From an uncultured archaeon (GTDB taxonomy: Archaea > Asgardarchaeota > Lokiarchaeia > Sigyniarchaeales > SOKP01), in NCBI GenBank assembly GCA_964508365.1, contig CAZDTP010000011.1, positions 1 to 64,000 of the forward strand: a stretch of DNA of 64,000 nt, in the 5' to 3' direction. This document shows, in pieces, positions 22,128 through 62,782 of the stretch. The notes under the pieces were generated by a model. It saw only the letters and a list, made by a program, of their open reading frames with translations, searched no databases and was not told the origin of the DNA. Every line of letters begins with the position of its first letter. Positions within the stretch are counted from its first letter, which is position 1. Position numbers and translations under genes: made by a program.

Positions 22128-22229
22128 AAGATTTATTCTAGAAATATTTAAATAATAACCAAAAACAATTAGTCTTACTATAATATCTACAATAAAATTA
22201 ATACCATAATAACTAGAAGGTGAAATAAA

Positions 22230-22436
22230 ATTACTGTATATAAAAGCATTCAGTTAGTAGCTACAAGCGATAAAAATTGGTCCGACGCTGTGCGTGTTGC
22301 TTTCGATGAGGCTAAAAAATCGCTTCGTGGTATCAGAAATATTCAAATTATCGAATCTGATGTGAAAGTTAAAGAAGATCAAGATAAATTAATTTATCGA
22401 GTTCGAGTACAAGTTAACTTTCAGATCGAGCGATAA
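22230..22436 (+). CDS. Dodecin-family flavin-binding protein (apparent ATT start; absent from the ORF track)
   Basis: Translates as (M)TVYKSIQLVATSDKNWSDAVRVAFDEAKKSLRGIRNIQIIESDVKVKEDQDKLIYRVRVQVNFQIER. This matches the dodecin pattern VYKxIxLVxTS...W..A. No in-frame ATG, GTG or TTG follows the upstream TGA. Confidence 0.85.
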   Translation: MTVYKSIQLVATSDKNWSDAVRVAFDEAKKSLRGIRNIQIIESDVKVKEDQDKLIYRVRVQVNFQIER

Positions 22437-22585
22437 AAAGAGTTTAGAAATATTTTTTTTTATTTTTTTTTATTACCTTAAAATTTCAAAACCTATTAAA
22501 TTTAAAAAATAATTTTAAAAAGAGTAATCGTTATGATTTTCATAGAATGAAATTTTGAAATCACAAAATAATATCAAATAATATT

Positions 22586-22693
22586 ATGGAAGGACTTCTA
22601 GAAACCTTTGGTGGTTACATAATTGCTGGTGTTATAACTTTAGTAGTTCTTATAGCTTGTTGTGTTATAAATAATAGACTATTGAAGAAATAG
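22586..22693 (+). CDS. Small single-pass membrane protein (35 aa; absent from the ORF track)
   Basis: MEGLLETFGGYIIAGVITLVVLIACCVINNRLLKK has one TM helix, a Cys pair and a basic C-terminus. Confidence 0.5.
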   Translation: MEGLLETFGGYIIAGVITLVVLIACCVINNRLLKK

Positions 22694-22727
22694 CATCATA
22701 TTTTATAATGGGATTTAGGTTATTAAG

Positions 22728-23474
22728 TTAAATTCCTATTTGGTTTAAATTTAAATATTCTAATAATTCGTCTAAGTATTCTTTATTAATAATAATGTAG
22801 TCTCCGTCAATTTTACAATTAAACTTTTCTCCCCATTTAATCAAAAGTTCAATAAGAGTCTCCTTACTTATTTTTAAAATTTCTTGGATCATATCTATTC
22901 GAATTCGTTTAGAAACTTTAAGTAAAGAGATCAATTGTTTAACAGCACCTTTTTCTTTTCTAGCTTTATTATCTTTATTAGTTTCGTTATCTAAATTTTT
23001 CCTTACTGAATTAAGGGCATGCAATGCATATATGTAATTAGGATCAATTTCTAAAGCTTTTCTGTAAGCTTCAACAGCTTTTTGAAAATCTCCGGTCGAT
23101 TCGTATACTAATCCTATGTTATAATAACCGTGTTTATAATTTGGATTAAGTTTAATCGCTGTTTTATAAGCATCTAAAGCATCTTCAAACTGTTCTAAAT
23201 TATAGTAGGAAATACCAAGATTATAATACGCTTTGTAATTTGTTGGCTCAAGCACGATGATTCTTCTAAAAAATTCCATAGATTTCTCGTATTCTAAAAC
23301 AAAATCATCATTGAGGTATCCTCCGTATGAAAATAAAGCCCTTATTAGGATTTCTTTAATTTTTTCAGAAGGATTATCAGCGTATAAAGCTTCCAAAATC
23401 TCTATAGCTTTTCTAAAATCTTCATTTTTCAATAAATCTTTGACTTCATTAAGGAGATTATCTATATCTACCAA
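22728..23474 (-). CDS. TPR-repeat protein with C-terminal PCI-like winged-helix domain
   Basis: TPR repeats (AYYNLGISYY, GYYNIGLVY, ALEIDPNY), then LKVSKRIRIDMIQEIL...KIDGDYIII. Confidence 0.8.
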   Translation of the reverse strand: MVDIDNLLNEVKDLLKNEDFRKAIEILEALYADNPSEKIKEILIRALFSYGGYLNDDFVLEYEKSMEFFRRIIVLEPTNYKAYYNLGISYYNLEQFEDALDAYKTAIKLNPNYKHGYYNIGLVYESTGDFQKAVEAYRKALEIDPNYIYALHALNSVRKNLDNETNKDNKARKEKGAVKQLISLLKVSKRIRIDMIQEILKISKETLIELLIKWGEKFNCKIDGDYIIINKEYLDELLEYLNLNQIGI

Positions 23475-23484
23475 AATTTTTCAC

Positions 23485-23940
23485 TTAAATATCATTTTCA
23501 TACCAATAATTTTTAGATTTTTTTGCACCTAATTTCATAACTAAGTTTCTTAGAGCGCTATCTGAATCTTGGCAAAGCAAAAATACTTTATCTAAATTAA
23601 GAGTCTTTTTAACATACAATTTCAATTCTCGAATTATTTGTTCCTCAATACCCTTTCTATAAGAATCTTCTTTTTTAGTTAGAACTTGGTGGATAAGAGC
23701 TCGTTTATTACCTAAATAATCTTTAATCAAGGTGTAGGTCCCCCAACCGACAATTTCTCCTTCTTCTTTAGCAACTACCATAGAATTTCGATACTGAAGG
23801 TCCAAAACTCTTTTATTTATTTCCCTTTCAAATTCTTGCCAAGTTGATATGAAATATGATTTATTTTCAATAAAATCTTCAAAAATCTCTTTAAGTGCGT
23901 CTCTATCTAATCGGGGGTCGTATCTATCAGTTACAATCAT
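23485..23940 (-). CDS. GNAT-family acetyltransferase
   Basis: VVAKEEGEIVGW, and YRKGIEEQII as a degenerate motif A. Confidence 0.65.
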   Translation of the reverse strand: MIVTDRYDPRLDRDALKEIFEDFIENKSYFISTWQEFEREINKRVLDLQYRNSMVVAKEEGEIVGWGTYTLIKDYLGNKRALIHQVLTKKEDSYRKGIEEQIIRELKLYVKKTLNLDKVFLLCQDSDSALRNLVMKLGAKKSKNYWYENDI

Positions 23941-24090
23941 ATTTTCTCACTTAATAATAATTTAAATAGTTGAATCTTCAATTGATAATTCTGTTAATGA
24001 TTAATGGTTTTATAATATTTTTTCTTATCAGTTTTAATTATTCTTTAATAAAAACTCTTTTTTATATTCTGAAATATAAGATGTATTAAG

Positions 24091-24600
24091 ATGAAAAAGG
24101 ATACAGAGGAATTAACTATCCCTTTCAAGAAAGTTAATAAAGAAACAATCATCCCTAAACCTTCAAAGAAAGGAGATGCTGGTGCTGATGCCCATATAAT
24201 GGGTTTTAAGAAAATTATTAATGAAAACGGTAAAAAAGAATTAATAGAAATTAATTCTGACACTTATACCCTAAAACCATTAGAGCGAATCGGCTGCCCC
24301 TTAGGTTTTGCAACAGCTATCCCAAAAGGATATTACTTTAAGGTCGTTCCTCGTAGTGGCTTAGGTTTGTGGGAAGGTTTATCTATAGTAAATTCTCCCG
24401 GCACGATTGATACTGGGTATAGAAATGAATGGATGGCGGTCGTTGTAAACCTTTCAAATATAGATATAACTTTAAGAAGAGGAGAAAGGATATGTCAGAT
24501 AATTCTAGGCAAAATCCATCATTACAAATTTAAAGAAACTGATGAATTACCAGAATCCGAGCGAGGATTAGCAGGTTTCGGCAGTACTGGTAAAAAATGA
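24091..24600 (+). CDS. dut: Trimeric dUTPase
   Basis: AGAD, PRSGL, GTIDTGYR, GERICQ and RGLAGFGSTG motifs. Confidence 0.95.
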   Translation: MKKDTEELTIPFKKVNKETIIPKPSKKGDAGADAHIMGFKKIINENGKKELIEINSDTYTLKPLERIGCPLGFATAIPKGYYFKVVPRSGLGLWEGLSIVNSPGTIDTGYRNEWMAVVVNLSNIDITLRRGERICQIILGKIHHYKFKETDELPESERGLAGFGSTGKK

Positions 24601-24641
24601 AATGGATTAAATATTAATCTCAAAATTTTAACTTCATTATT

Positions 24642-24854
24642 ATGTCAGAACTATCAATAGAAGAAGTTTTTATTATCAAAAAGTTAGAAGAAAATAGCGG
24701 AAAATTGATTTATAAAGAATTACAAACGCTCTGCCAAGAGGAATTTGAGGGTGTTAGGTTAATCTTGAAAAAATTAAAGGAAAAACAGATTGTAAGTTAT
24801 GAGGGAGTAATCCCAGGGTATTCCGCGGAAATTATACTTAAAGAAATCTCTTAG
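24642..24854 (+). CDS. Small winged-helix-like protein
   Basis: 70 aa with a helix-turn-helix/wing-like pattern (LIYKELQ...LILKKLKEKQIV). Confidence 0.55.
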   Translation: MSELSIEEVFIIKKLEENSGKLIYKELQTLCQEEFEGVRLILKKLKEKQIVSYEGVIPGYSAEIILKEIS

Positions 24855-24998
24855 GTTTAAAAGTATATTGATTTGAACTTCCCTCGAATTTTTTTATATG
24901 ATATATTGACATTAGTTTTAAATAAAATCTATATTTTAAGATTAATTACTAAAATTAATTGGTTATATTGAATAAAACCCAAACATTTTTGTCTAATT

Positions 24999-26510
24999 TT
25001 GATTGAAAATAAAAATATTGAGCTATTTAAAGATCATTTTCTCCATTCCTTCTTAAACCCGAGAAGTATAGCAGTATTTGGGGCAAATAATGACTTACTT
25101 AATACGATGGGTTCGATGCAGCTTCGAAATATCATTGCAGGAGAGGGGGTTGATGATATTTATCCAGTTCATCCACGATTAGATAAAATTCAGGGCTTTA
25201 AAGCTTATCAATCAGTATTAGAGCTTCCTGTTACACCTGATCTTGCATTTCTTATATTACCTACAAGAATAGTTCCTCAGGTTATGGAAGAATGTGGAGA
25301 AAAAGGAATAAAAAACCTTTTAATAACTTCTGGTGGATTTAGAGAAATTGGAAAAGATGGTGTTCAGTTATCACAAGAAATTGATAAAATTGCTAAAAAA
25401 TACAAGATGAGGTTTATTGGTCCAAATTGTTTGGGAATATATAACGCTTGGTATAGGTTTCCTGAAAAAGAAGATGCATACTTAAACACTTTTTGGCCTT
25501 ACGCTGTTCCAAAAAAAGGGAATATTTCTATTATAAGCCAATCCGGAACAGTAGCAGCTCAAACTTTTTGGCACGCAAAAGAGATGGGCGTAAACATTAG
25601 TAAATCTCTTTCTGTTGGAAATGAAAGAAATATTGACATGGTAGATTTCTTAGAATATTTTAAAAACGATCCTCACACTGGCGTCATCGGGCTTTACATA
25701 GAAGAAATTAAGCGGGGTAAAGAATTTATTCAATTAATAAAGGAAATAACCCCAAATAAGCCTGTTGTGGCTATATACACGGGAGGAACTAAAGCAGCAA
25801 ATAGATCTATTAAAAGCCACACTGGTTCTTTAGGGGGGGATCAAAAGATTTATGACGCAGTTTTTAAAGAAGTAGGTATAATTCCAACAAATTCCATTAC
25901 GGATTTCTTATATTATTTGAGGACATTGTCTTTCGCTCAAAAATACAATATATTTATGAAAGGAAATAGAGTAGGGATTATTACTGATTCTGGTGGAAGT
26001 GGCTCAATGATGACAAAATCTTCAGAGTTATATGGGTTAGTGGTTCCAGAATTTTCTAAACAACTAAAGGACGAGCTTACGGAGTTAATACCGTTTACTG
26101 CCAGTGCTAGGAATCCTATCGATGTTACTTTCGATGTTAACTTCCTAAATATTTTCTATAAATTTCCAAAAATGCTTATGAAATCGGGAGAAGTAGATTG
26201 CATTATTGCCTGGGGTGTGTTCGATTTCGATGATATTATAAAGACTATTGAACAATCGGGAATGAAAGTCGATGAAAATCTAAAAAATATGGATACAATG
26301 CTTGATCGAACTATTTTACGACCTATTAGAAAACTAATGAAAAAATTTTCTATCCCTGTTTATTTTTGTGGACCTTTTCCATATAGATTTCCATGGTTTC
26401 AAAAATTTATATCGTACGATCTACCTATTTTTGACTTTTGGGATGCTCCGCCTAAATGTTTGAAGATTTTATATGAATATTCCCAGTATCGCAGAGATCA
26501 TTCCTTATAG
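24999..26510 (+). CDS. NDP-forming acyl-CoA synthetase, alpha subunit family
   Basis: LNPRSIAVFGA, FIGPNCLG, SQSGT, SVGNE, SHTGSLGG and NPIDVT motifs. Confidence 0.9.
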   Translation: MIENKNIELFKDHFLHSFLNPRSIAVFGANNDLLNTMGSMQLRNIIAGEGVDDIYPVHPRLDKIQGFKAYQSVLELPVTPDLAFLILPTRIVPQVMEECGEKGIKNLLITSGGFREIGKDGVQLSQEIDKIAKKYKMRFIGPNCLGIYNAWYRFPEKEDAYLNTFWPYAVPKKGNISIISQSGTVAAQTFWHAKEMGVNISKSLSVGNERNIDMVDFLEYFKNDPHTGVIGLYIEEIKRGKEFIQLIKEITPNKPVVAIYTGGTKAANRSIKSHTGSLGGDQKIYDAVFKEVGIIPTNSITDFLYYLRTLSFAQKYNIFMKGNRVGIITDSGGSGSMMTKSSELYGLVVPEFSKQLKDELTELIPFTASARNPIDVTFDVNFLNIFYKFPKMLMKSGEVDCIIAWGVFDFDDIIKTIEQSGMKVDENLKNMDTMLDRTILRPIRKLMKKFSIPVYFCGPFPYRFPWFQKFISYDLPIFDFWDAPPKCLKILYEYSQYRRDHSL

Positions 26511-26721
26511 GTTGTTCAAAATCTGAAGTTTTTATCAAATAAACTACATCGCTTTTATTTTATGTAAGAGAATGGGTTTCTATTTCTCGGTCTAAAATTC
26601 GATCTAAGATAACTGAACGCACATCGAGAATAAAGAGAATATTAAATAGTATAGGATTTATTATTTTAATAATTTATAAATTAGATTTCATGTTCAATTA
26701 GGAATAAAATAGTTAAGTAAT

Positions 26722-29700
26722 TTGACACACCCCAATAGTAGAATAACCGAGTCTATATCTCATCAAGACAATTATAAATTGCTCTTTGATAAAATTCCAA
26801 TTTCAATTGTATTAATTGACTCCAATGGTCAAGTGGTTGATATCAACTATGCTACGGAAAATATTTTTGGTTTCGAAAGAAAGGAATTAATTGGTTTTGA
26901 GTTTTCAGAATTGTTTATGCTTCCCGCAGCAGACAAGGTACCAATGAATAAGGTATTTGATCAATTACTAAAAGGTGGTATCTTTGGTCCAGAAGATATT
27001 CAGATATATGACAAACATAAAAATCTCATCTGGGTTAATGTTATTGCCTCTAAAATTGAGATCGAAAAAAAGAGTTATATTCAAGTTTTAACCCAGGATA
27101 TCAGTCAGCGTAAAATTTTAGAACAAGAAGTTAACGAATCAGAGAAAAGATTTCGTGTTTTGTACGAGTCGTCTCCAATTTCTCTCACAGTAACCAACAG
27201 TAAGGGGATAATTCTTAATATTAATTCAGCTACAGAAAAAATTTTCGGATACACCAAACGAGAAGCGATTGGTAAAAAATATACCGATTTAGGAATTTAT
27301 TCTCCGGAGCAAATTGAGATTTTTAAAAATAATTTTAAAGAAGCTTTAGCCGGAAAGAAGATAAAACCACAAGATATTAAGATTAAGAGAAAAGATGGAA
27401 CTTTCGCTTGGATTAACCTTCAAAATTCACTAAAAAAAATTAACGATGAGGTTTTAATAGAAGGTATAGCTCAAGATATAACAGATAGGAAAAATGCTGA
27501 AAAAAAGTTAAGAGAATCAGAAGAGAAATACAGAAATCTAGCAGATTCTTTACCAGAAGTAATTTTTGAGCTCGATTTAAGTTTTATTATAACATATACC
27601 AATTCGATTGCATCCAAAATATTTGGATATACAAGTGAAGAATTTAAGAAGGGTATGATCATATTTGATTTCATACCACCTGAGGATAAAGAATTAATTC
27701 TGAAGCAGACGAAACAAATATTTCGAGGTGAATACATAAAACCTTTACAAACTTGGTTAAAGAGAAAAGATGGAACATTATTTTTCGCATATATTCATGC
27801 AAGTCGGATTTTCAAGGAGAATTCAGTCTCTGGAATGAGATGTATTATACATGATATTACAGAATTGAAAAATTCACAAGAAAAGATTAAGGAATCGGAA
27901 GAAAAGTATAGATTATTATCAGAAAATGCACAAGATTTAATAACAGTCATAGACAATCATTTAAAAATAGATTATATCAATGCGAAAGCTCATAAAAGAT
28001 TGATGGGATATTCTTCAGAGGATCTTATTGGTAAAAAAGCATTAGATTTAATCCATCCAGAAGATCGAGAATTAGTCATTAAAGCATTGAATGAAAGATA
28101 TAGTTCAATAGAAGCAAGGATTAGAAAAAAAAACGGGGGATATGTCTGGATGGATACATCTGCTGAGTACTATAAAAATCAAGAAGGTAAAAACTATTTT
28201 CTCACAATTTCAAGAGATATAAGCGAAAGAAAGGAAGCTGCTCAAAAATTAATTGAATCTAAAAAGAAATATAAAGAATTAGCTAACTCATTGCCAGAAG
28301 TTATCTTTGATATTGATTTAAATTTTAAACTAGTCTATACAAACGCGATCGCTTCAAAAGTTTTCGGATATTCTCATGAAGACTTTAAAAAAGGATTAAA
28401 TGCGTTTCATTTCATTCTGGAAGAAGATAGAGATGAAGTTATAAGTAATCTTAGCCTAATTTTTAGGGGTAAAACTATCGATCCTTTAATTATGCAATTA
28501 AGAAAAAAAGACGGAACAATTTTTTATGGAAGTATAAATGCTACTCCTATTCATGAAGGTACTAAGATTATTGGTATGAGGAGTATTATTCACGATGTTA
28601 CTGAAATGGTAAAAGCTGAAGAAAGAATAAAAGAATCTGAAGAGCAGTTCCGAACAATTTCAGAGCAATCTTTAATGGGAATTTCTATAATCCAAGAAGA
28701 AAGAATTAAGTATGTGAATAAAACGCTCGCTCACTTACTTGGATATTCAGTCGAAGAAATGGTGAATTGGGGTCAGGGAGAGTTTTTTAAAACGATTCAT
28801 CCCGAGGATAAGAGAAAAATTATTGAGCTCGCTACAAAAATTGAAAATCAGGATAATGCTAATCTTCAATATTATGAAGCTCGTGGGATTCATAGAAATG
28901 GGAGCACTATATGGTTAGAAATTTACAACAAGCATATAAAGTTCCAGAATAAACCTGCATTCTTAGTATCATACATAGATGTAACAGAAAAGAAGAAGGC
29001 TAAGGAGGAATTACGACAATCAGAAGAGAAATATAGATTCCTTTTTGAGAAATCACCAGTTTCGATTCTACTTATGGACACGAAGGGTAAAATAGAGGAT
29101 TGCAATCCAGCTTTAGAAAAATTAATTAAATACAAGAAGAGTGAACTTATTGGTAATAAATTCGGTAGCCTTTCATTTATTCTTCCAAAATATTTACCCC
29201 ATTTGTTTAAAAGACTTAAGCAAATTTCAGATGGAGAAACTATACCCTCTATAGAGATTCAATTAGTTAAAAAAGATGGGAGCCTAGTATGGGTAAATTA
29301 TGAATCCTCTTTAGTGAAAGTGGGCGATAAAACCTACATTATGGTTATGGGTCATGACATATCAGACACAAAAGAAATAGAGATAAAATTAAAGGAATTA
29401 AATGAAATGAGAAAGGAATTTATTGATAGAGCTTCTCACGAATTAAAGACTCCCATAACTACGGTATATGGTGCGTATCAGTTGTTAGACTTGTTACATA
29501 AAGATAAGTTCAATCCAGAACAGCTTGAGCTTCTAGAAATGGCGTCCATTGGAACTAAAAGAATAAAAAAATTAGTTGACGATCTACTTGATGTGTCTCA
29601 ATTGGAATCTAAAAGTTTTAAAGTAAATAAGAGCAGAGCTAACTTAAGCAATATTATTATAAATTGCATCAAAGAAATGAAATATTTTAGCAATAAACGG

Positions 29701-38174: not shown

Positions 38175-38996
38175 TTGCTTATTAATATAAGAGGAGATTT
38201 TATGGTAAAAAAGGAATATATATGTCAAAAGGGTAAAAAATCTTCAATTATCATTGAAGATCTGAAAACTGAGATTAAAGAAGGAGCATCTATGATTTTG
38301 GGATTTGCTGGGATTGGATTAATAGGACCAATCGTAGCAAATACTTTAATCGAGCAAATTTCAGACATTAAAGAGATAGGATTTATCATCAGTGAATATT
38401 TGCCTCCAATTTCCGTCTTTTACGATGGAGTATTAAAACATCCATTTCGATTATATTATTCTCCTATGCACAATCTCATTGTTGGGATATCAGAGGTTCC
38501 TTTTCAAGTAGCTACAGCATATAACGATTTAGCAAGGACCATTAATAATTGGTTATTATCTGAAGACGTTAAAGCTAAAGAAGTTGTAATTTTTCAAGGG
38601 ATTCCTAACCGGGGTATTATTGACGATTATCCTGTATATTATGCGGCGGAAGCTAATATGATCGAAAGTTTGGAAAAATACGAATTAAAGAAGGTAGAGA
38701 AAGGGATTATTGTAGGAGCTGAAGCGACAGTGTTAAACGAAGCTTTAGCAACCAAGTTAAACGCATACGCACTATTCACTCCTGTTTTAGAAATTCCAAC
38801 ACCTGAAGCTGCTGCGGCAATTATAGAAGTCTTGAATAAAATCTATAATTTAAATATTGAAACGACTAAATTAATTGAAGAAGGTAAAGAGATTAAGGCT
38901 AAAATGCTTGAACTAGCCGAAAAAGCTCAACAATATCAAAACCAACAACAATTACCTGATCGTCCTAAGGAAAGCTACACACAATATTTTCAATAA
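38175..38996 (+). CDS. PAC2-family protein (second copy)
   Basis: GFAGIGLIGPI, HPFRLY and PTPEAAAAIIEVL motifs. The real start may be the ATG at 38202, after AGGAG. Confidence 0.85.
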   Translation: MLINIRGDFMVKKEYICQKGKKSSIIIEDLKTEIKEGASMILGFAGIGLIGPIVANTLIEQISDIKEIGFIISEYLPPISVFYDGVLKHPFRLYYSPMHNLIVGISEVPFQVATAYNDLARTINNWLLSEDVKAKEVVIFQGIPNRGIIDDYPVYYAAEANMIESLEKYELKKVEKGIIVGAEATVLNEALATKLNAYALFTPVLEIPTPEAAAAIIEVLNKIYNLNIETTKLIEEGKEIKAKMLELAEKAQQYQNQQQLPDRPKESYTQYFQ

Positions 38997-39120
38997 TAAT
39001 TTTATTTCTATTTTTTTATCAGTTTAAACTGGAGAGATATTTTTTTTTATAAAAACTAATTTTATTATTATTCGGCAATTTTTCTTAATTAATGTTATTA
39101 GTAGGAAGAGGTCAATTTTT

Positions 39121-39570
39121 ATTAAAGAAAAGTTCATTCCAATTCAAATAAACCAAGAGCTCTGTATGCGCTGCGAGAGGTGTGTAAAAGCGTGTAGAAA
39201 CGATGCAATTTACTTTGATCATTCAGTTAGGCTTGTTGACTATACTAAATGTAAAGGATGTTTATCATGTGTTCAAGTTTGTCCTCGAAATGCAATTCAA
39301 GTCACTTCAGTGATACCCCACCAGGTTCTTACTGTAAAAATAGATCATACGAAATGTTCCATGTGCGAACAATGTCTTGAGGAAAACGGTAAATTTTGTC
39401 CACAAAATTTATTTTATATAGGTAAAGTGAAAAAGGATGGACAAGAAGTGGATGGGATTCTCTATAATTTTAATGAAGTTGATAAGTGTCAAGGGTGCTT
39501 GAAGTGTGAGTCTTCCTGCCCTGAGGGTGCAATTAAGCCTGTTGTATATAATACGGAATCTTTTTTATGA
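39121..39570 (+). CDS. Polyferredoxin with four 4Fe-4S motifs (apparent ATT start)
   Basis: Four CxxCxxC...C motifs. The first Cys (TGT at 39163) lies upstream of the only ATG (39166). No ATG, GTG or TTG occurs in frame back to the TAA at 39025. SD-like GAGGTCA precedes the ATT at 39121. Confidence 0.85.
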   Translation: MKEKFIPIQINQELCMRCERCVKACRNDAIYFDHSVRLVDYTKCKGCLSCVQVCPRNAIQVTSVIPHQVLTVKIDHTKCSMCEQCLEENGKFCPQNLFYIGKVKKDGQEVDGILYNFNEVDKCQGCLKCESSCPEGAIKPVVYNTESFL

Positions 39571-50320: not shown

Positions 50321-50434
50321 ACTTATTCTATTATTTTAATATATACTTATTATGTCTTGAAATATTATCATAAAAAATTAATTTAAAGGATCTTTTTATT
50401 TTGTATTAGAAAATAGTAAAAGCGTTGATTAAAC

Positions 50435-50827
50435 ATATATTCAGAAAAAGTCATGGATCACTTTCGAGATCCTCGAAATATGGGAGAAATGAAAGATGCT
50501 GATTCAATTGGAGAAAATGGGAATCCCGTTTGCGGAGATCTCATGTATATCTATATTAAAGTAGAAGAAAGGGATGGAAAGGAAATAATTAGTGATATTT
50601 CGTTCCAAACGTTTGGATGTGCTGCTGCCATCGCAACATCTTCTATGATAACAGAATTAGCTAAGGGTAAAACGCTCGAAGAAGCATTGAAAATTACTAG
50701 AAATGATGTTGCTATATCTTTAGATGGTTTGCCTCCAATTAAAATGCATTGCAGCAATTTAGCCGCTGATGCTTTACAAGATGCTATTAGAAAATATCGG
50801 GAGAAGGGAAAATTAAAACACCTATAG
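50435..50827 (+). CDS. iscU: Fe-S scaffold protein IscU/NifU (apparent ATA start)
   Basis: NPVCGD, FGCAAAIA and KMHC motifs. Upstream of the ATG at 50453 the frame reads ATA-TAT-TCA-GAA-AAA-GTC, which restores the conserved (M)YSEKVMDHF N-terminus. An in-frame TGA sits at 50426. Confidence 0.9.
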   Translation: MYSEKVMDHFRDPRNMGEMKDADSIGENGNPVCGDLMYIYIKVEERDGKEIISDISFQTFGCAAAIATSSMITELAKGKTLEEALKITRNDVAISLDGLPPIKMHCSNLAADALQDAIRKYREKGKLKHL

Positions 50828-51478: not shown

Positions 51479-54376
51479 ATGGTATCAGAATCTAATGAAA
51501 AGGTTAAAATTAAGCTCAGCGGAATGACATGTGCTTCTTGCGCCCTCAAGATTGAAACAAAACTAAAAAATTTAGAGGGAGTAAGTAGTTCAGCTGTAAA
51601 TTTTGCAAATGAGGAAGCAACAGTTGAATTTAATTCGAATAAAACTAATTACAATGAATTTAATAAAGCAATTAAGGATTTAGGGTATAAAGCGTCGTTA
51701 GCAAAAATAGATTTTAAAGTAATTGAGTCAATTTCTGAGCAAGAATTTAATAATCTGGTCAAAAAAGTTGCTGAAATCGAGGGTATTTACGATGTTAGAG
51801 GTAATTTTATAGCTAATAAATTATTTATCGAATTTAATGAATTACAACTTGACGAAAGTGAAATCTTTTCAAATATTAAGCAGATTGGTTATAAAATTGA
51901 AAAGACAGCGGGAGCAATTGATAAAGAAATCGAGAAACACAAAAAAGAAATGCGATATCGATTGCGAATATTATTAATTGCATTAGCTTTCACTTTTGTA
52001 ATTACGCCAATAAGTTGGTTCGTACCACCGTCTTTTGTAAGGAATTTATTTCTGTTTTTTTTTGCTACAGCTGATTACAGCGTAGCGGGGTCTTTCTTTC
52101 TCGTAGGTGCCTATAAGTCATTAAAAAATAAATCAACTAACATGGATGTTTTAGTTGCGTTAGGAACTACGACTGCTTTTGTATATTCAATACTAACAAC
52201 ATTTTTGATTCGGGGAAACACATTCTACGAAGCAATGAGTATGATTCTAGCATTCCTGCTAATTGGAAAATACTTTGAACATAAAACAAAAGGACAAACT
52301 TCTGAAGCAATTAAGAAGTTAATAGGTTTACAACCAAAGACAGCTACTCTCTTAAAAGACGGAGAAGAAACAGAAATTCCAATTGAAGAAATCGAGATTG
52401 GAGATATTTTGGTTGTTCGCCCGGGCGAAAAAATTCCTCTTGATGGACGAGTCGTTAAAGGAAAATCAAAAGTAGATGAGTCGATGATCACCGGTGAAAG
52501 TAAATATGTGAAAAAAGAAATCGATAGCGAAGTTATTGGTGCCACGGTTAACCAAAATGGATTGATTAACATTGTAGCTGAAAAGATAGGAAAAGATACG
52601 TTTTTATTTCAAATAATTAATTTTGTAAAAGAAGCCCAAAGTAAAAAAGCTGCAAAACAACAATTAGCTGATAAAGTTAGTAATTATTTTGTCCCAGCTG
52701 TTATATTAATTGCAACTGGAGCATTTCTTTATTGGTTTTTAATTGCTGGTTTAGGATTAGAATTGTCATTGTTAGTTTTTACATCAGTTGTTGTAATCTC
52801 ATGTCCATGTGCTCTCGGTTTAGCGATACCTACTGCTGTCATGGTAGGTACTGGTAAAGGTGCTGAAAATGGAATCTTATTAAAGGGAGGAGATTCTTTA
52901 GAAGCAATAAGCAAAATCAACACCATCGTTTTTGATAAAACTGGGACTTTAACTGTAGGGAAACCAAGAGTATCAGCAATTTTTACTAAAAAAGATTTGA
53001 ATGACAGCGGCTATGACGAAGAACAGTTATTATTTTATGCAGGAAGTGCTGAAATGGGTTCTGAACACCCTCTTGGACAAGCAATCATTGAAGAAGCAAA
53101 TCAAAGAGGTTTAACTCTTGAAGTTCCTATCGAATTTGACGCTATACCTGGGAAAGGGATTAAGACTGCTATTAAAAATAATACCGTACTCATAGGAAAC
53201 GAGCAGTTAATGGTAGATAATAATATTTCAATTGATTCTTATAAGGACAAATTTAATGAATTTCAAAACCAAGGAAAAACAACAATTCTAATTAGTGTTG
53301 AAAATGAGATTAAGGGAATTATTGGAATCTCAGATAAAATGAAAGAACAAGCTCCGTATGCATTAGAGAAGTTACGTGAAAAAGGATTGGAACTTTTTAT
53401 GCTTACAGGAGATAATAAACAAACTGCCTTAAATATAGGTGAAGAGCTAGGATTTGACGAGCAACATATATTAGCAGAGGTTTTACCGAACGAAAAAGCC
53501 GAAACTATTAAAAAATTACAAAATTCCATAGAAAACAAAATCGTTGGTATGGTTGGAGATGGAATAAATGATGCTCCTGCTCTAGCTCAAGCAGATGTTG
53601 GAATCGCGATTGGATCTGGAACAGATATAGCAATAGAGACCGCAGATATAGTACTAATGAGAGGAGATCTTAGGAATGTAGTAGCAGCTATTAATCTCTC
53701 CAAAAAAACCTACAGGAAAATGCTTACAAATTTGTTCTGGGCATTTTGCTACAACATTATAGGGATTCCGATTGCTGCGGGAATTCTTTACTTCGCAACT
53801 GGATTCTTTTTGCCTCCGTATTTAGCAGCTGTCTTTATGGCGGCTAGTTCTGTTTCAGTGGTTACTAATGCCCTTTTCTTAAAAAGATATGAACCAAAAA
53901 CACCACAACAAATCGAAGAAGAAAAACTCTTAATCTCCCAAGAAAAAGTTGTGGATCCTGTTTGTGGTATGAAAATTGATCCCAGAAGCGCAATTGAACT
54001 CGAATATCAAGGTAAAATATATCATTTTTGCAATCCTAACTGCGAAACTCACTTCAAACGGGATCCAGAAAGATTTAAGAATTACGATAATATGAACCCT
54101 AAGTTAATGCAAATGAAGAGTACTGAAGAAGAATTAGACACTTCTGAAGATCAGAAAAAATTTCAAGAAATCAAATCAAATAAAGAAGAAAAAGAGGTAG
54201 ATAAAAAAATGGGTAAATTAAAATGTGTTGAATGTGGATTGGAGCAAGATTTACCAATGCATTGTGGGCAAGCAATGCATCAAGAAGAAGATCAGCTAGT
54301 CTGTTGGATGGGCGCATCTTGTGGAGCTCAACCAATCCCCAAACATCATGGGAAAATCATGGAAATTGTTGAATAA
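51479..54376 (+). CDS. copA: Cu(I)-type P1B ATPase with C-terminal YHS domain and Cys/His-rich domain
   Basis: GMTCASC HMA domain, TGES, CPCALG, DKTGT, SEHP, GDGIND and YN/MAASS TM motifs. DPVCGM..YHFC (YHS domain). Confidence 0.95.
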
Positions 54377-54406
54377 ATTAAGTTTAAATAAAGAGGTTAT
54401 AAGAAA

Positions 54407-54589: not shown

Positions 54590-54609
54590 TTTTTTTTCCT
54601 TTCTAGTAA

Positions 54610-55905: not shown

Positions 55906-55914
55906 GATTAAGAA

Positions 55915-58236
55915 TCAAAGATAAATATCAATGTCTTTTTTAGGAAATACTTTTAAGATTTTCGGTAATTCTACTCCTAATCTTATCTTCTCACAGATTT
56001 CAACATAAATAGGGTAGAAATTATTAAGTATCTTGTATATTTCATTCCATGCCTTTTGTTCTTCCGTATTCTCACCAATCTGTTTCCTGAGTTTGGGAAA
56101 TATAGCACTTGATTTATTCCGATTTAAAAATTTAAAAAATTGTTTCGTTACTTTTATTCTAATCTTTTCATATGCTTCTGGTCTAAAATTAGCGATGCTG
56201 TAACTTAAGTCATCGTCAGTAATGGGAAAGAAATTGATACGCTTATCTTCAGGTTCATCTGGATTTTTCTCTAAACTTAATTCTAAATCTTTTGCTGCAA
56301 TAATTTCCAATATGGGATAGAGTTGACCTGGATTGATATGAGTTTCCATTTGAATCTGAGACGCGATTTCTGATATACAATAATGAAAATCGGGATATTT
56401 CTCTTGATTTTCAATCCGATAAGCATACTCTTTTTTTAATATATCGATGATATTATTTTTTAATATTTGAGGAATCTCTTTTTGAGTAAAAGAAATCGAT
56501 GCATCCTTTTGCATTTGTTCAAAAGATAAATCATCTTTTTGTTTTTTTGTATAATCCGAAGTTAAAGAAGAAATAAATTGATCCGAAGCTTTATTTTGGT
56601 TAGTATCAACATGTAAGTCGAGTTTTTTAGGTTTGTCTGATCTCATGGTTGTGAAGAGTCTATCGGACAGATATTTTTTTGCTTTCTTCTGTGCTAATTC
56701 TTTTTTATCGAACTTTTCGAGAATAGAAGTAAAGTCTACGAATTTTTGATATCGCCCTTGATCATCTTTTACATCTTTCAAAATAATATTCAAATTAATC
56801 TTCGATAGAGTACCAACCAAAGAATATATCTTATTTTTAGAAAGCCTAGTAGCTCTAATCAACTCGCGATCTAAAATCTCTAGAGGAAAACCCTCCCCCC
56901 TTCGTAAATACTCGCTCCTTAAGAGTTTATAAATTATATCCATAATCTCCTCTTCTTGATCTACCGTTTCTTTCTGCAAACGAATAAACATTGAAGTTTC
57001 ATGTGGTTTTAAATAATAAAATAGCAGAGTACTCCCTAGGAAAATAATCATTATAATAGAGATAATAAACTTATCTGCCATGAAAAACTGTCCAAGGGGG
57101 GTAATTATCTGATTTGGAATTTGTGTCTGTAAAGCATAACGAGTAAGAGTTTGAGAAAGAACACAGCCTAAAATTAAAAGTATTAAACCATCTCTTTTAA
57201 AGATAAGAAGGTTCCATTCTATTGAACGCCCTAATTTTTTGATGATTCTATACAGGAAATACATAGATACGGCAAATTCTAAAATAAATATAAACCATAC
57301 TGTAGAACTACTCGCACCTACAGTCTCTTTTAGGGCGATTATAGTTGCTGGATTTAAAATTAAGAATAGTGATAACTGAAAGACTTGGAAGAAAAAGATA
57401 AATAAAACTATTAAAGAAAAAGTGAAGTTATCAAACAATCCGGCTCTCTTTGTCTCAGCTCTTCGTCGCGTAAATACAAATTCAAATATAATGAACAAGA
57501 GAGTTAAAATTAAACTAAAATATATTAAGGGCATTATCAAACGCATTTCTAATTCATAAACTCCTACTGCTTCACTGGGAGCAAAAGGACCAAAAAAATC
57601 AAGAGAAATATAAACTAACAGACCACGGTAAAACAGGGCTATTATAACTAATACTCCTAAAATAAAATATGGAGCAATGAAAGCTAAAAATCGTCGAAAT
57701 CCAGAATATTTAGCAATAAACTTAGCCTCTATTTTAGTTGCAAACTTTCTGGAATACATGTAGAAGCGAATACTTAATAATAAAAGCCAGATTGTTGACA
57801 ATCCTAATAGATAGCTTATTAAATTTGTGTTTATATTATAGACATATAGGAAGAGAACAAAGAAACCCGAAATAATTCCAACATATAAAATAATCTGTTT
57901 AATACCTGAATGTTTTTCAAAAATGAATATTCTAATTTTATCAATGCTATATAATATAGATAATGCGAGAAAAAAAGCCACCAATGCGTTTCCAAAAACA
58001 AATGGGTTTCCAAAAGTAAGAACGTTTAAATATGTACCTGGAAAATTTATCCCGACTAACAATAAAAAAGAATAGATCAAAAAAATAAAGTAAATTACAA
58101 AGAATTTTCTTTCTCCAAAGTATGATTTCGAAGTTTCTTTTCCTTCTACATAATGTTCTTGTATAAATATTTTACGAATGTTCTTTTGAAGAGAATCTTT
58201 TATCTTTGTTAGATTTTCTTTAGCATTCATTTTCAT
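55915..58236 (-). CDS. Polytopic membrane protein with large C-terminal soluble region
   Basis: About 11 TM helices in residues 45-410, then about 360 soluble residues with two winged-helix-like segments. Confidence 0.75.
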   Translation of the reverse strand: MKMNAKENLTKIKDSLQKNIRKIFIQEHYVEGKETSKSYFGERKFFVIYFIFLIYSFLLLVGINFPGTYLNVLTFGNPFVFGNALVAFFLALSILYSIDKIRIFIFEKHSGIKQIILYVGIISGFFVLFLYVYNINTNLISYLLGLSTIWLLLLSIRFYMYSRKFATKIEAKFIAKYSGFRRFLAFIAPYFILGVLVIIALFYRGLLVYISLDFFGPFAPSEAVGVYELEMRLIMPLIYFSLILTLLFIIFEFVFTRRRAETKRAGLFDNFTFSLIVLFIFFFQVFQLSLFLILNPATIIALKETVGASSSTVWFIFILEFAVSMYFLYRIIKKLGRSIEWNLLIFKRDGLILLILGCVLSQTLTRYALQTQIPNQIITPLGQFFMADKFIISIIMIIFLGSTLLFYYLKPHETSMFIRLQKETVDQEEEIMDIIYKLLRSEYLRRGEGFPLEILDRELIRATRLSKNKIYSLVGTLSKINLNIILKDVKDDQGRYQKFVDFTSILEKFDKKELAQKKAKKYLSDRLFTTMRSDKPKKLDLHVDTNQNKASDQFISSLTSDYTKKQKDDLSFEQMQKDASISFTQKEIPQILKNNIIDILKKEYAYRIENQEKYPDFHYCISEIASQIQMETHINPGQLYPILEIIAAKDLELSLEKNPDEPEDKRINFFPITDDDLSYSIANFRPEAYEKIRIKVTKQFFKFLNRNKSSAIFPKLRKQIGENTEEQKAWNEIYKILNNFYPIYVEICEKIRLGVELPKILKVFPKKDIDIYL

Positions 58237-58339
58237 CGAAAAAGTAAGTATAATGAGAGAAAATGTTTCATTAGAATTAAAAAAGTATTATTTTCTTAAA
58301 TGAATTTTCATAAATAAAACCAACCATAAATAATTCAGT

Positions 58340-58690
58340 TTGTCATTCATAGCTGAAAATTTAAAAGGCTTCAATTATAATATAAATATGCAAATGGATA
58401 ATCAGCCAGATAAACCAGATAAAGAAAACTTGATAAAACTGGTCAAACAAGGCATTGAAATGTTAGCGGAAAGGAACATTTCGGATATGCTGATTTTGTC
58501 CTCATATAAAATAAATTCAGTGTTAAAAGATAACTATGGTGTGGATATTAAGGTCGATAGAATTGGACGAATTCTGTCTTCTGTAGCAAAAAATAATCAA
58601 TTAAAGCGATTAAAAACACAAATCCCTAAATATCAATTGCATATATCGAAAGTTGGTAGACTTCAGTATCCTGAGTTGTCACCTTCGTGA
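58340..58690 (+). CDS. Hypothetical protein, possibly winged-helix
   Basis: 116-aa basic protein. The SSYKINSVL...VDRIGRILS segment is HTH-like. Confidence 0.55.
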   Translation: MSFIAENLKGFNYNINMQMDNQPDKPDKENLIKLVKQGIEMLAERNISDMLILSSYKINSVLKDNYGVDIKVDRIGRILSSVAKNNQLKRLKTQIPKYQLHISKVGRLQYPELSPS

Positions 58691-58785
58691 AGTGAAATAA
58701 ATATATCGCAAATAAAAAAAAGATAGATAAAATTTTTTCATATGATCTCTTTGATAGAAATTTATAAAAAAGAGTAGAAATCCTA

Positions 58786-60168
58786 CTATTTCTTAATAAT
58801 TCGAAAATCAGGAATTATTTTTTGTAATCTGTCAATTAACTTTTCAAGTTCTATAAAATTTTCGTTGAAATTTTCTAATTCTGAAATTAAATTATCCAAA
58901 TTGGTAGTAATGTTTATTTCGAAGGGATGATTGATAGCACTTATTCCTTTTAACATTTCAATAGAGAGATTTTCTATTTGATTCGTTAAATCTGAGATTT
59001 GTTTTGCTGAGTATTCAATTTTCTCTCTTGTGTTTGTGTCTAATTTTGATAGTTCGTATAGTTTATTAATAGATTCATTGAGCTCATCTTTTATAGACTT
59101 AGAGATATCACTGATACTTTGTTCTAAATATTCGCTAATTTCACTTTTTAAGATTTCACTAATCCCGTAGGTATTCGATTTTAATTCTTCTTGTCCCTCA
59201 AGACGTTTTCTTATGTATTCTTCCACTTTTTCCTTATATTCATCCAACCTTTCTTTAAATTTTAAGTCAATCCAATTTTCTACTTTTTCAAAACCCCTAT
59301 TAATTCTGGAATTCATTTCTGATAGAGAGTTATTTATTTTATCAAGACCTATTAAAGCTCCATCATTAAATTCCGTAGACCATAATTCCAATTCGGATTT
59401 ATAATTATTCAAGACTAGGCTAGATAAATTCTGTAACCCTTTTTTAAACCCGTCTATAACCGGATTAATGTTAGGATAATTTATGTCGATTCTTGTATCA
59501 ACTTGATCGACTGACTTCGGAATTTCTTGAAGATCGCCTGGAATTCCTTCAATCGTCTCTAATCTCTCGCGTATTATATTTGGATCCTTTGCCTGACCAT
59601 ATTCAACAAGCTCTCGAACCCATCTGAAGAAGTCTAGGGATTTTGGCGTTTCTATTTCATATTTCACTCTAACAATTCCGCTTTTTTCGCCTAATTTGTG
59701 ATTTTTTAATTGAAATACATCTAAACCTAAATGATTGTTTTTTTTAAGTTTAGTGTGATCAAATACGATTCCAAATGCTAAGGAGTTTTGTTCATTTTGA
59801 AAGTATAAATGGTTCTTTTTATCAACATCTGAAAAGAAAAAAGAATCACTGTTGGGGTGTGAATGATACCAACCTACAACGGTAGGGTTCTCATCTTTAA
59901 CTTCTTCTTTTATCTGCTCAAGTACTTTATGAATCTTTTCTGAAAAACCTAATTCTACTTGATCACCGTGTGTAATGGGAATAGCTTTGATCACGTCAAT
60001 ATCATCGCTGTCAGGTTCTTTGTTTCCCAAACAAAATCCTAGAACTTGTTCATCGGAATCAAATATAGTATTAGCAAATCTTAATACATGAGTAAGAATA
60101 TCTTTATACACACTCATTCGTATGAACACTTTACCTTTTTCTCTAGTTTCAATTGTGCTCTCATTCAT
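58786..60168 (-). CDS. MPN/JAMM-domain protein with long helical (coiled-coil-like) C-terminus
   Basis: QVLGFCLG, AIPITHG and VVGWYHSHP...FSDVD, followed by about 270 helical residues. Confidence 0.88.
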   Translation of the reverse strand: MNESTIETREKGKVFIRMSVYKDILTHVLRFANTIFDSDEQVLGFCLGNKEPDSDDIDVIKAIPITHGDQVELGFSEKIHKVLEQIKEEVKDENPTVVGWYHSHPNSDSFFFSDVDKKNHLYFQNEQNSLAFGIVFDHTKLKKNNHLGLDVFQLKNHKLGEKSGIVRVKYEIETPKSLDFFRWVRELVEYGQAKDPNIIRERLETIEGIPGDLQEIPKSVDQVDTRIDINYPNINPVIDGFKKGLQNLSSLVLNNYKSELELWSTEFNDGALIGLDKINNSLSEMNSRINRGFEKVENWIDLKFKERLDEYKEKVEEYIRKRLEGQEELKSNTYGISEILKSEISEYLEQSISDISKSIKDELNESINKLYELSKLDTNTREKIEYSAKQISDLTNQIENLSIEMLKGISAINHPFEINITTNLDNLISELENFNENFIELEKLIDRLQKIIPDFRIIKK

Positions 60169-60170
60169 CT

Positions 60171-61625
60171 CTATTCTTTACCTCCTTTTTCGAGTTCTTT
60201 GATTTTTAATAATAACTCTTTTTTCTCAGATTCCAATTTATCGATTTTTTCAAAGATGGGTGCTTTTGTTCCTTCCAAAATTAAAACTGCAGCTTTTAAG
60301 TTTGTTACAAACTTTTGAGAATTCTTTTGTAGATCACTAATTGAATTCTTTATTAAGCCATGCTTCTTCGATGTAAGATCTGAGGTTTCTTTTTGCATTC
60401 TTTTTATCTTTTCGAGTGTAGCGTCTTTTATCGTAATTATTTTATCAGATAAAATATTTAATGAATTTTCTAATTTTTCGAGATTCTCGAGATTAGTAGT
60501 TAGATTTCCATTGAGATTCATTATTTTACTGCTCCATTCGTCGTGATCTTTTGAGAAATCATTTTTTAATGCTTCAAATTTCTCCTTAAATGAAATATTT
60601 AGTTTCTCTTGAACGAATTCTTCTATTTCTCTCAAAATTTTTCCTATCTCATCATGATATACATCTATTTGGTCTAGAAAGTCGTCAACATAACCTTCTG
60701 CGTTAAACAATTCAGAATTTAAATCGTCTTTATATTTCCTTTGTATTTTATCAATTCCAGAGTTCACTAAATTTTTTAATTGAGATAAATTGTTTCTGAT
60801 TTCAATGTTGTTATTCTCAATTTCTCCCGAAATGTTTTTTGATATCGAATTTAAATAGTTAATCAAGGGTGTTAAAGATAAATCTATAAAGTTAGAAAGA
60901 CCGATTTGAACTGATTCAATAATTTTATGTTGATCTATTTCAGGTTGCTTAAACCTTAATTGATTCAATTCAGGGACTTGAACATCACCAAAGATATCAG
61001 CTGTTTCGTTTTCTTCTGTAATAGGGGGCTCATTTGAATATACACAATTAATTAGATCAACAATTTTAAAATAATACTCTAAATCGTTAGGAGGTTCAAC
61101 AATAGCCTTCACATCGTGAACACTCGAATCCCTGATATCTGTTGGATTAGTTAATCTAATAGCCTTAAATCCCAGATCATCTGGATGTTCCAAATATGCG
61201 TGGTCAAAAACTAGTGCTATTCCACTTGGATTCAATTCATTTTGCCAACCGAATTGATTTTTTACATCCGTAGGCGAAAAGAAAATCTTGTGCTGGAATA
61301 ACAGAGGATGTGAATGATACCAGCCCACAATAAAAAATCCTTTATCGTAGTACATCGAATTAGCTTTTTCAAAGAAAATATAATCGTTAATCGAGAATTC
61401 TACTTCTACGCTACTCCCATGAGAGATTGGTACGGAATCTTCAATTACGACATTCTTAAACTTCTTATCTTCGCCATCTTCGAGGTGCCCAATAAGCACT
61501 CCCATTACTTCGATACACTGAGAATGATTTCGAGCCTTGTTTCCAAAACGTAATACATGTAACACCATTTTATAATAAGCAAGTGGCTTTATCTTTACAA
61601 CGCTATTATCTATATCTTTACCCAA
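60171..61625 (-). CDS. MPN/JAMM-domain protein with long helical (coiled-coil-like) C-terminus
   Basis: IEVMGVLIG, SVPISHG and IVGWYHSHP...FSPTD, followed by about 290 helical residues. Confidence 0.9.
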   Translation of the reverse strand: MGKDIDNSVVKIKPLAYYKMVLHVLRFGNKARNHSQCIEVMGVLIGHLEDGEDKKFKNVVIEDSVPISHGSSVEVEFSINDYIFFEKANSMYYDKGFFIVGWYHSHPLLFQHKIFFSPTDVKNQFGWQNELNPSGIALVFDHAYLEHPDDLGFKAIRLTNPTDIRDSSVHDVKAIVEPPNDLEYYFKIVDLINCVYSNEPPITEENETADIFGDVQVPELNQLRFKQPEIDQHKIIESVQIGLSNFIDLSLTPLINYLNSISKNISGEIENNNIEIRNNLSQLKNLVNSGIDKIQRKYKDDLNSELFNAEGYVDDFLDQIDVYHDEIGKILREIEEFVQEKLNISFKEKFEALKNDFSKDHDEWSSKIMNLNGNLTTNLENLEKLENSLNILSDKIITIKDATLEKIKRMQKETSDLTSKKHGLIKNSISDLQKNSQKFVTNLKAAVLILEGTKAPIFEKIDKLESEKKELLLKIKELEKGGKE

Positions 61626-61873
61626 TATAAATCACTTCATCTTTAGAGAAACTAATGAATTTATTCTATAATATTTTTTATTTTTAACAATAATAATTTT
61701 GAGCAGTTAATATAAATGTATTGTGAATGATAATTTATTCTTCTTTTTCATTTATATCTTTTATTAGATTCTTAATTTTTAAAACAATCTTAATCAACAC
61801 CTAGTTAAAAATAAGAATCCTACTTTTTTTTGTAAGAAAGGTTAATAGGAAATAATAGAATAAACGTTTTAAT

Positions 61874-62548
61874 TTAATGGGGTAGTGGTTTGCCGCAGTA
61901 AGGACAGAATTTCCAGTCTAAATCTTTCCCACAATGAGGACAAAAAGTGGAAGAACCAGTTGTAGAGTTATCAGGCGTAACATATTCTACACCCTCTCCT
62001 TTTGGGATTGGAGGTAAACTTTTGGTAGTTTTTAGCGTCGATGGTGCTTGTTGACTTGCTTGAGCTCTTTTTTCTTCCTTAACATACTTCATCCTCTCTT
62101 GAAATGCTTGGCGTTTTTCGTCTTCTAATTCTTGATTTGACTTCATGCCCTCTTCTTTTACCCATCCTGTTGCTGCTGGTCTCTTCATTTCGCTTTCTGG
62201 AACTTTTTCTAATTCAACTTCTTTAGCTTCAGAAATCGGGGCTATAACTTTTTTTTCTTCTTTATTAGTAATAGCCTGCTTAGTTAATGCGTGAGTAGTT
62301 TTCATAATTTGGTGGGGATTTATATTTGGAATTGCTACTGTTCTCAGCACCCATCCCACTATGAGATTTTGGTTAGGAAAACCAGAAGCGCTCATATCTT
62401 CTTCTTTAAAAACATAGGAATCAATAACATCTTTGCCTTTTAGTAAACGGATAGCCCATTTATCGTTTATAAGCCCTAATTGAATCCTATACGAAGTTCC
62501 AGGAATCCCTAGTTGACTACTTAGAGGTTCAAATCCTTGTTTAGAAAT
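61874..62548 (-). CDS. Hypothetical protein with C-terminal double zinc ribbon (apparent ATT start)
   Basis: The frame stays open for 51 codons upstream of the ATG at 62395 ((M)SKQGFEPLSSQLGIPGTSYRIQLGLINDKWAIRLLKG...) with no ATG, GTG or TTG. C-terminus CPHCG...CPYCG. Confidence 0.7.
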   Translation of the reverse strand: MSKQGFEPLSSQLGIPGTSYRIQLGLINDKWAIRLLKGKDVIDSYVFKEEDMSASGFPNQNLIVGWVLRTVAIPNINPHQIMKTTHALTKQAITNKEEKKVIAPISEAKEVELEKVPESEMKRPAATGWVKEEGMKSNQELEDEKRQAFQERMKYVKEEKRAQASQQAPSTLKTTKSLPPIPKGEGVEYVTPDNSTTGSSTFCPHCGKDLDWKFCPYCGKPLPH

Positions 62549-62782
62549 AATTACATCAACTCAAATTATAAGAAAATCTAATTAATTGGAAGCAAATCTA
62601 ATTTGTTGAAATTATAATATTATCATAATTTTCGAGTTTAAATAATTTTATATTTGGTGGCTGAAAAAAAAAAAATATTTTGGGATTTAGACATAATTGA
62701 AGTAATATAAAATCTAAAAAAATAGACATAAATATGAGATCTTGTATAAGCTTATCAAAAAAGAAATCTTTGAATTAAAAAT

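Follow-up and report, generated by a model that had tools for sequence, protein, structure and literature searches.

Where does a reading frame begin when no ATG, GTG or TTG lies before the part of the protein that its family conserves? This question is raised by four genes in a stretch of 64,000 nucleotides (contig CAZDTP010000011.1, positions 1 to 64,000; hereafter the window) from an uncultured archaeon of the Lokiarchaeia, order Sigyniarchaeales. The genes encode dodecin, a polyferredoxin, the scaffold protein IscU and a zinc-ribbon protein. An earlier note on this DNA had proposed that they start at ATT or ATA and that start-codon selection is relaxed. In the analysis described here, the joint reading found very probable is that AUU, AUA and AUC, and elsewhere ACG, are sole starts that are placed by the Shine-Dalgarno sequence (SD) and accepted by an ordinary initiator tRNA, discrimination being relaxed in this genus.

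The genome holding the window (G000) is a metagenome-assembled genome (MAG) of 4.07 Mb with 32% G+C. Below, ATG, GTG and TTG are called canonical starts and ATH stands for ATT, ATA or ATC. I searched for orthologues in 24 genomes of the same genus and in 15 from other families in the order, and noted which codon aligns with each proposed start; aligned starts were scored in 17-23 congeners, depending on the gene. The ratio of nonsynonymous to synonymous differences per site (pN/pS) was calculated between G000 and four or five congeners, for the codons upstream of the first canonical codon and for the remainder of the gene. The 16S rRNA of G000 ends with GGATCACCTCCT at its 3′ end, and the SD consensus is therefore AGGAGGTGATCC. 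The TGAT of the SD lies at −9 to −6 in the ATG genes of G000.

Start codons of the four window genes

The features concerned are as follows.

22217-22229 (+), dodecin gene: ribosome-binding site (RBS) with its spacer, AAGGTGAAATAAA; AGGTGA is complementary to the 16S 3′ end, register 6
22230-22436 (+), dodecin gene, start ATT; 68 codons plus stop
39108-39114 (+), SD-like GAGGTCA of the polyferredoxin gene; GAGGT match, register 6
39121-39570 (+), 4Fe-4S polyferredoxin gene, start ATT; based on orthologues, Fer4 match and pN/pS
50424-50429 (+), iscU gene: weak SD-like element GTTGAT, which several orthologues have as GGTGAT; SD match of 4 nt only
50435-50827 (+), IscU/NifU scaffold gene, start ATA; based on the NifU_N match and orthologues
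62552-62563 (−), in-frame TGA (62563-62561) and SD-like GTTGAT (62560-62555) of the zinc-ribbon gene; TGAT match, register 7, 4 nt only
61874-62551 (−), zinc-ribbon gene, start ATT at 62548 or 62551; conserved N-terminal domain and C-terminal zinc ribbon; based on orthologues and pN/pS
3727-3742 (+), comparator: RBS, spacer and ATG (3740) of the PAC2 gene; the 13-mer at 3727-3739 is identical to that of dodecin

It was confirmed that the dodecin gene has no canonical start. Its leader reads AAGGTGA, then TGA(22221) AAT AAA ATT(22230) ACT GTA TAT AAA; the in-frame TGA at 22221-22223 lies inside the RBS and is the stop that bounds the open reading frame (ORF), and the sole canonical codon in frame is an internal GTG at 22290. 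The match to Pfam PF07311 covers profile positions 1-64 of 64 (E = 7e-17) and begins two residues after the ATT, so that a start at the GTG would cost 20 of the 64 positions. The aligned start codon is ATG in 10 same-genus orthologues, ATT in 8 and ATA in 2, and (A)AGGTGA is found at equal spacing in all 20, whichever of the three codons follows. Codons 4-22 have a pN/pS of 0.05-0.27, and the N-terminus predicted from the ATT is (M)TVYKSIQLVATSDK. The earlier note had also pointed to the 13 nucleotides shared by the dodecin and PAC2 leaders. This identity was confirmed, and the window has just these two copies of the 13-mer; however, 13 of 100 shuffled controls gave two or more copies at one mismatch or fewer. 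Thus, the identity is real but weak as evidence by itself and not significant alone.

In the polyferredoxin, the ATT at 39121 comes 6 nt past GAGGTCA, and the first Cys of a CxxCxxC motif is the codon directly 5′ of the only ATG (39166), in line with the earlier claim that it lies upstream. Three Fer4 units were detected (E = 1e-22), with Fer4 domains beginning at residue 8-9. In the same-genus orthologues the aligned start is ATT in 11, ATC in 2 and ATG in 4, and most of them lack the downstream ATG (C-L-R-C). In the orthologues the element usually reads GAGGTAA, so that a stop (TAA) falls in frame two codons 5′ of the ATT; this TAA rules out an in-frame ATT at 39115 as the start. The upstream segment has a pN/pS of 0.06-0.21, and the predicted N-terminus is (M)KEKFIPIQINQELCMR.

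The iscU leader reads TGA(50426) TTA AAC ATA(50435) TAT TCA GAA AAA GTC ATG and encodes the YSEKVMDHF N-terminus of the family, with the ATA and the in-frame TGA where the earlier note had placed them. This TGA (50426-50428) lies within the SD-like element and bounds the ORF. Positions 2-124 of 127 in the NifU_N profile (PF01592) correspond to residues 2-125 counted from the ATA (E = 1e-46), and the predicted N-terminus is (M)YSEKVMDHFR. Among 22 same-genus orthologues the aligned start is ATT in 13, ATA in 4, ATC in 4 and TTG in 1; ATG was found in none. The ATG six codons into the gene is replaced by TTA in G018 and by TTG in G020. The comparison also took in 74 IscU loci from archaea and bacteria of other groups: the aligned codon is ATG, GTG or TTG, or is internal behind a nearby ATG, and ATH occurs there in the six closest Loki-type loci only. 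An IscU with 82-83% identity and the same leader was also found on JAAKFN010000136.1 ('Anoxychlamydiales bacterium') and JBHLRA010000034.1 ('Thorarchaeota archaeon'), which are probably mis-binned or mislabelled.

The leader of the zinc-ribbon gene reads TGA GTT GAT GTA ATT(62551) ATT(62548), followed by the 51 extra open codons that had been reported, up to an ATG at 62395. The aligned start in the same-genus orthologues is ATG in 14, GTG in 1 and ATT-ATT in 8. The ATG of the orthologues aligns with the second ATT (62548). The ATT-ATT group is the sub-clade of G000, and three of its eight members have a TAA directly 5′ of the ATT pair. The pN/pS is 0.16-0.22 in the 51 codons upstream of the first ATG versus 0.20-0.27 downstream.

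In all four genes, no in-frame canonical codon lies between the bounding stop and the conserved N-terminus (the dodecin GTG being internal). Across dodecin, polyferredoxin and the zinc-ribbon gene, the upstream segments have a pN/pS of 0.05-0.27 with pS at 0.6-1.0, near saturation, and do not differ from the remainder of the gene; that of IscU, six codons, is too short for the calculation. A canonical start is present at the homologous codon in 4-15 congeners for these three genes and, as TTG, in one congener for IscU. The alignment of Lokiarchaeia orthologues, a check that had been suggested, revealed a start alternating among ATG, ATT, ATA and ATC behind a conserved SD. As judged from these comparisons, the four genes are intact, their reading frames begin at AUU or AUA with no canonical start available, and the segments before the first ATG, GTG or TTG are translated and under purifying selection like the rest of the gene.

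Frequency, lineage distribution and Shine-Dalgarno linkage

How many genes start in this way, and in which lineages? Flagging genes automatically, by extending tblastn matches to very close congeners, was dropped; it flagged nearly everything, as intergenic DNA and shadow frames align too. Because it was too permissive, per-gene codon-marked alignments and a congener census were used. Aligning the N-termini of all ~59 window ORFs with 6-8 congeners, codons being marked, showed that 4 of ~55 genes need a non-canonical start and that every other gene has a conserved canonical one. Thus, the count of the earlier note was reproduced, and no further G000 gene in the window was found to need such a start. 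TTG starts are frequent, as it had said (~9-11 genes), and several are conserved as TTG in orthologues. Two further window genes vary at the start: the gene at 9073-11370 (−) has TTG in G000 and ATT (G016) or ATC (G018) in orthologues, and a heavy-metal ATPase gene at 51479-54376 (+) has ATG in G000 and ATA in G024, with no evident start before the GMTCAS motif in G007.

The census covered 250 orthologue pairs between G000 and 390 kb of the ~70%-identical G018, with shadow-ORF filters on. In 8-10 G000 genes and 7-8 G018 genes, conserved protein lies upstream of any canonical codon. The cases include P-loops of small GTPases, the N-terminal strand of Kae1, gcvT and an aminotransferase, and each is bounded by a stop. 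Since the census detects a case only with ~10 canonical-free codons, the comparison gives 3-4% of genes with non-canonical starts in both genomes, as a lower bound. Eleven of 13 cases were found in one genome only, and the remaining two are common to both; with only two shared, turnover within the genus is high.

In the outgroups (family f2), 0-2 doubtful cases were found in 127 pairs for G032 and one in 184 for G030, or ~1% or less. G032 has ATG opposite a G000 ATT in gcvT, in a GPN-type GTPase gene and in one more gene. These counts are suggestive of relaxed starts being largely specific to the genus, at ~1% or less in the sister family. The pattern described in the earlier note is genome-wide in the genus, but it appears largely genus-specific and reaches beyond ATT and ATA to ACG, which differs from ATG at the second position.

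Are these codons linked to an SD? Of 15 validated G000 sites, 13 have an SD match of at least 4 nt and nine have one of at least 5 nt, at register 5-9 (scored window 4-10). The corresponding values are 34.5% and 13.3% for the 2406 first-ATG sites of G000, and 20% and 5.2% for its internal ATH codons; the excess of matches of at least 5 nt at the validated sites has a binomial p of 3e-5. In many such ORFs the bounding TGA or TAA is the end of GGTGA or GGTAA. An own-genome scan was also performed, excluding sites 6 or fewer codons from a canonical start, as codons adjoining a true start share its SD. The SD-carrying fraction for each triplet was as follows.

ATG, 12.5%
TTG, 10.8%
ACG, 9.4% (16/171; ~3.5 sites expected; an upper bound)
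GTG, 7.1%
ATC, 4.1%
ATT, 3.1%
ATA, 2.9%
other triplets, 2.06%

Thus, ATH and ACG are enriched behind SDs relative to other triplets. One SD-linked 'ACG start', on contig C17, was rejected, since a conserved ATT one codon upstream leads it; therefore, ACG counts from the scan are upper bounds. Two other ACG sites, bounded by an SD and an in-frame stop, were verified in relatives. A ubiquitin-like gene (G000 C1:58412-58678, −) has ACG in five sub-clade genomes, ATT in one congener and ATG in ~24 genomes, and a TGA lies two codons 5′ of the ACG in two of the five. An esterase-like gene (G000 C39:32559-33671, −) has ACG where G012 and G024 have ATG.

The ribosomal protein gene rpS28e (G000 C20:60802-61050, −) starts at TTG or GTG in most of the genus. 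At that codon the sub-clade of G000 (8 genomes) has TTA, preceded by ATC in seven of the eight and by ACC in G015. The start in this sub-clade may be the AUC at an unusually short SD spacing, the UUA, or a downstream ATA.

Initiation machinery and competing explanations

The only aIF1/SUI1 gene of G000 (PF01253; C25:11557-11904, +), which encodes the factor that guards start-codon choice, has no ATG, GTG or TTG until the C-terminus is reached. Its start is an ATT that follows AAGGTTGTGA-N9, and the ATT with a nearly invariant 26-nt leader is present in 18 of 18 genus members. Elsewhere the start column has ATA (genera g5 and g9), TTG (g2 and g8) or GTG (g10), with ATA, TTG or GTG in family f2 and ATG in family f4 only. 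The initiator tRNA gene (G000 C25, ~38530-38650, −) was found by its anticodon-arm motif; it reads AGCGGGG...GGGCTCATAACCC...CCCCGCTA, with A1:U72, the three G:C pairs and anticodon CAU. It has a ~70-nt insert outside the anticodon loop, and neither T-arm nor intron could be delimited. Whole-genome counts gave 14-29 tRNAs with ARAGORN and 27 with Rfam, with intron-rich tRNAs mostly missed; many tRNAs of these MAGs thus escape annotation. The earlier note had named aIF1 and the initiator tRNA as places to look for changes, but the aIF1 protein and the tRNA anticodon arm are without obvious change.

The proposed mechanism would run as follows. A near-cognate codon is set 5-9 nt past an SD complementary to the 16S 3′ end, and SD:anti-SD pairing would put it in the P site. 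There the ordinary initiator Met-tRNA (CAU, canonical arm) would be accepted despite one mismatch, owing to relaxed start-codon discrimination in this Lokiarchaeial genus. Near-cognate codons are probably weaker starts than AUG. With an AT-rich genome, mutations from ATG to ATH would therefore be tolerated and turn over between species, and in iscU and aIF1 the weak start appears to be held by selection.

Several points weigh against this reading. The near-cognate starts are predicted here by comparing sequences. The ATG six codons into IscU could serve as a start too in most species. Only two samples stand for the outgroups in the contrast with the genus, and cases were harder to detect in them (Fisher p = 0.01-0.03). 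No single ATH position of rpS28e is common to the eight TTG-less genomes, a case that the rule does not fully cover. Across the order, the alignment of the well-conserved aIF1 protein revealed no genus-specific change in the basic loop and no obvious relaxing substitution; therefore, no protein-level cause is proposed.

It is possible, if somewhat doubtful, that the weak starts are mainly regulatory, keeping expression low or linking it to stringency, with the AUU of aIF1 as an autoregulatory sensor like that of infC or eIF1. The persistence of the aIF1 ATT and its leader in every genus member examined, with ATG in a single family, would fit this, as would the IscU start: it is ATH in 21 of 22 and ATG in none, although it has switched repeatedly between ATT, ATA and ATC. 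Sulfolobus aIF1 rejects AUU in vitro, and feedback loops in which IF3 and eIF1 are each autoregulated via a weak start are established (PMC4705826). By analogy, an aIF1 feedback loop of this kind is plausible in the genus. However, most ATH starts are lineage-specific and exchange freely with ATG (dodecin, the zinc-ribbon gene and the 11 single-genome census cases), which resembles drift under weak selection. Moreover, G030, whose aIF1 starts at ATA, has just the one ATH start in its 184 pairs; the idea that ATH use tracks the aIF1 start codon across genera was rejected on this count and is unsupported beyond genus g1. More speculative, and rather unlikely, is the idea that the genus runs at a lowered, self-set stringency, where aIF1, made from a strictly conserved AUU, would settle at a level at which AUU works and AUH (ATH in RNA) or ACG would be the sole start of ~100-300 genes, housekeeping ones among them.

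A dedicated decoding device, either a modified C34 on the initiator tRNA (such as 5-formylcytidine, f5C) or a second initiator-like tRNA, is improbable. In mitochondria, f5C at C34 of the tRNA reads non-AUG codons, and AUA and AUU are used as starts. The AUH codons likewise all differ from AUG at the wobble position alone, and the incomplete detection of intron-containing tRNAs leaves room for a second initiator. However, ACG has a second-position mismatch that a wobble-only device does not explain; its use means that the relaxation covers the second codon position too, which argues against a purely wobble-based device. Further, GUG and UUG are frequent, and one initiator-type anticodon arm was found, which is canonical. 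Least of all can the pattern be put down to untranslated upstream segments (with starts at the next canonical codon, or decaying genes) or to assembly or base-call errors: most pipelines do call the shortened ORFs and IscU would lose just 6 residues from its downstream ATG, but this explanation, extremely improbable, is already contradicted by the comparative data, since MAGs obtained independently in several studies show the same codons (base-call error is thereby ruled out), the upstream segments are as constrained as the remainder of the genes, truncation would cost a cluster Cys, a third of the dodecin profile (20/64) and the P-loops of GTPases, and in several orthologues no canonical codon follows downstream.

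Known parallels, annotation and other irregular frames

Relaxed, SD-placed initiation of the proposed kind resembles that of bacterial infC, where AUU or AUA behind an SD, accepted by the initiator tRNA, starts the gene of a fidelity factor, IF3, which is under translational autocontrol (Butler et al. 1987, as cited in PMC4705826); in Staphylococcus aureus the infC start is AUA (PMC13009471). On the other hand, aIF1 is a homologue of eIF1 and unrelated to IF3, and bacteria have one or a few such genes, not a few per cent of the genome. Conserved AUU or AUA starts are also found in S. aureus cvfC1, ccpN and citZ; in that species they need a strong, well-spaced SD and give ~10-30% of the AUG output (PMC13009471). 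Four sites per genome were identified there by ribosome profiling and reporters (PMC13009471), compared with about a hundred or more predicted in the archaeon by comparative genomics.

As in eukaryotes, the start in archaea is selected by the core factors e/aIF1, e/aIF1A and e/aIF2 (PMC6412873). The near-cognate set (ACG, AUU, AUA, AUC, GUG and UUG) is similar, and the fidelity factor's own start is suboptimal, as reported for eIF1 (Ivanov et al. 2010, as cited in PMC4705826). However, eukaryotic ribosomes scan, and near-cognate codons there mostly serve upstream ORFs or alternative isoforms at low efficiency; here they appear to be the sole, SD-placed starts of housekeeping genes. Ribosome profiling in Haloferax volcanii gave ~30% near-cognate codons among putative alternative initiation sites, but these are secondary or alternative sites that were set aside by the authors, in contrast to the sole conserved starts here (PMC7261190). 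No paper describing non-AUG or ATT starts in Asgard archaea or Lokiarchaeota was found in the literature searched, which covers few subscription journals. AUU/AUA initiation behind an SD is thus already known, and what is unusual here is the scale, the ACG, the restriction to one lineage and aIF1 itself. A lineage that tolerates AUU, AUA, AUC and ACG as sole starts, with its own aIF1 at AUU, would be a natural experiment on how stringency is set, one in which a parallel with the feedback on IF3 and eIF1 can be tested.

Do standard gene callers miss such starts, as the earlier note had expected? In part they do, as far as the JGI, ENA and Logan pipelines are concerned. Public protein sets produced by NCBI, JGI, ENA or Logan pipelines contain exact copies of the shortened products of all four genes, with lengths of 134 aa (polyferredoxin), 124 aa (IscU), 173 aa (zinc-ribbon protein) and 48 aa (dodecin fragment). 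However, NCBI calls ATT for orthologues of the polyferredoxin (151 aa, MFIKEKF...) and NifU (MYSEKVMDHF...) from other MAGs in records JBQSDN010000131.1 and JAGMBV010000023.1 (MCK4381865.1). NCBI translation table 11 already admits ATT, ATC and ATA starts, and the NCBI calls in Promethearchaeota MAGs are made case by case, with no frequency, lineage or mechanism stated. ACG is not known to be among the start codons of this table. With callers limited to ATG, GTG and TTG, the predicted proteomes of this Asgard lineage would be wrong for a few per cent of genes: dodecin would be missing, the polyferredoxin would lack the first Cys of a cluster, and GTPases would lack their P-loops. Such errors would distort the comparisons of gene content and domain architecture behind studies on the origin of eukaryotes.

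Two irregular reading frames of other kinds were also observed. A JAMM/MPN-type gene with the motif GWWHSHPGF lies at 62783-63729 (+) of the window, where a 4-nt deletion near 62890 splits the frame; its counterparts in G011 and G017 are intact, and at the break either the gene is frameshifted or the assembly is wrong. A SelD/PurM-like ORF (A1059; G000 C6, −) opens with SCKLG... after a stop at offset 17421 of the reverse-complemented contig. Both this ORF and its G018 orthologue open directly past a stop, with no canonical start for 12-27 codons. The stop may be a TGA read in frame as selenocysteine, in which case the start would not be at issue.

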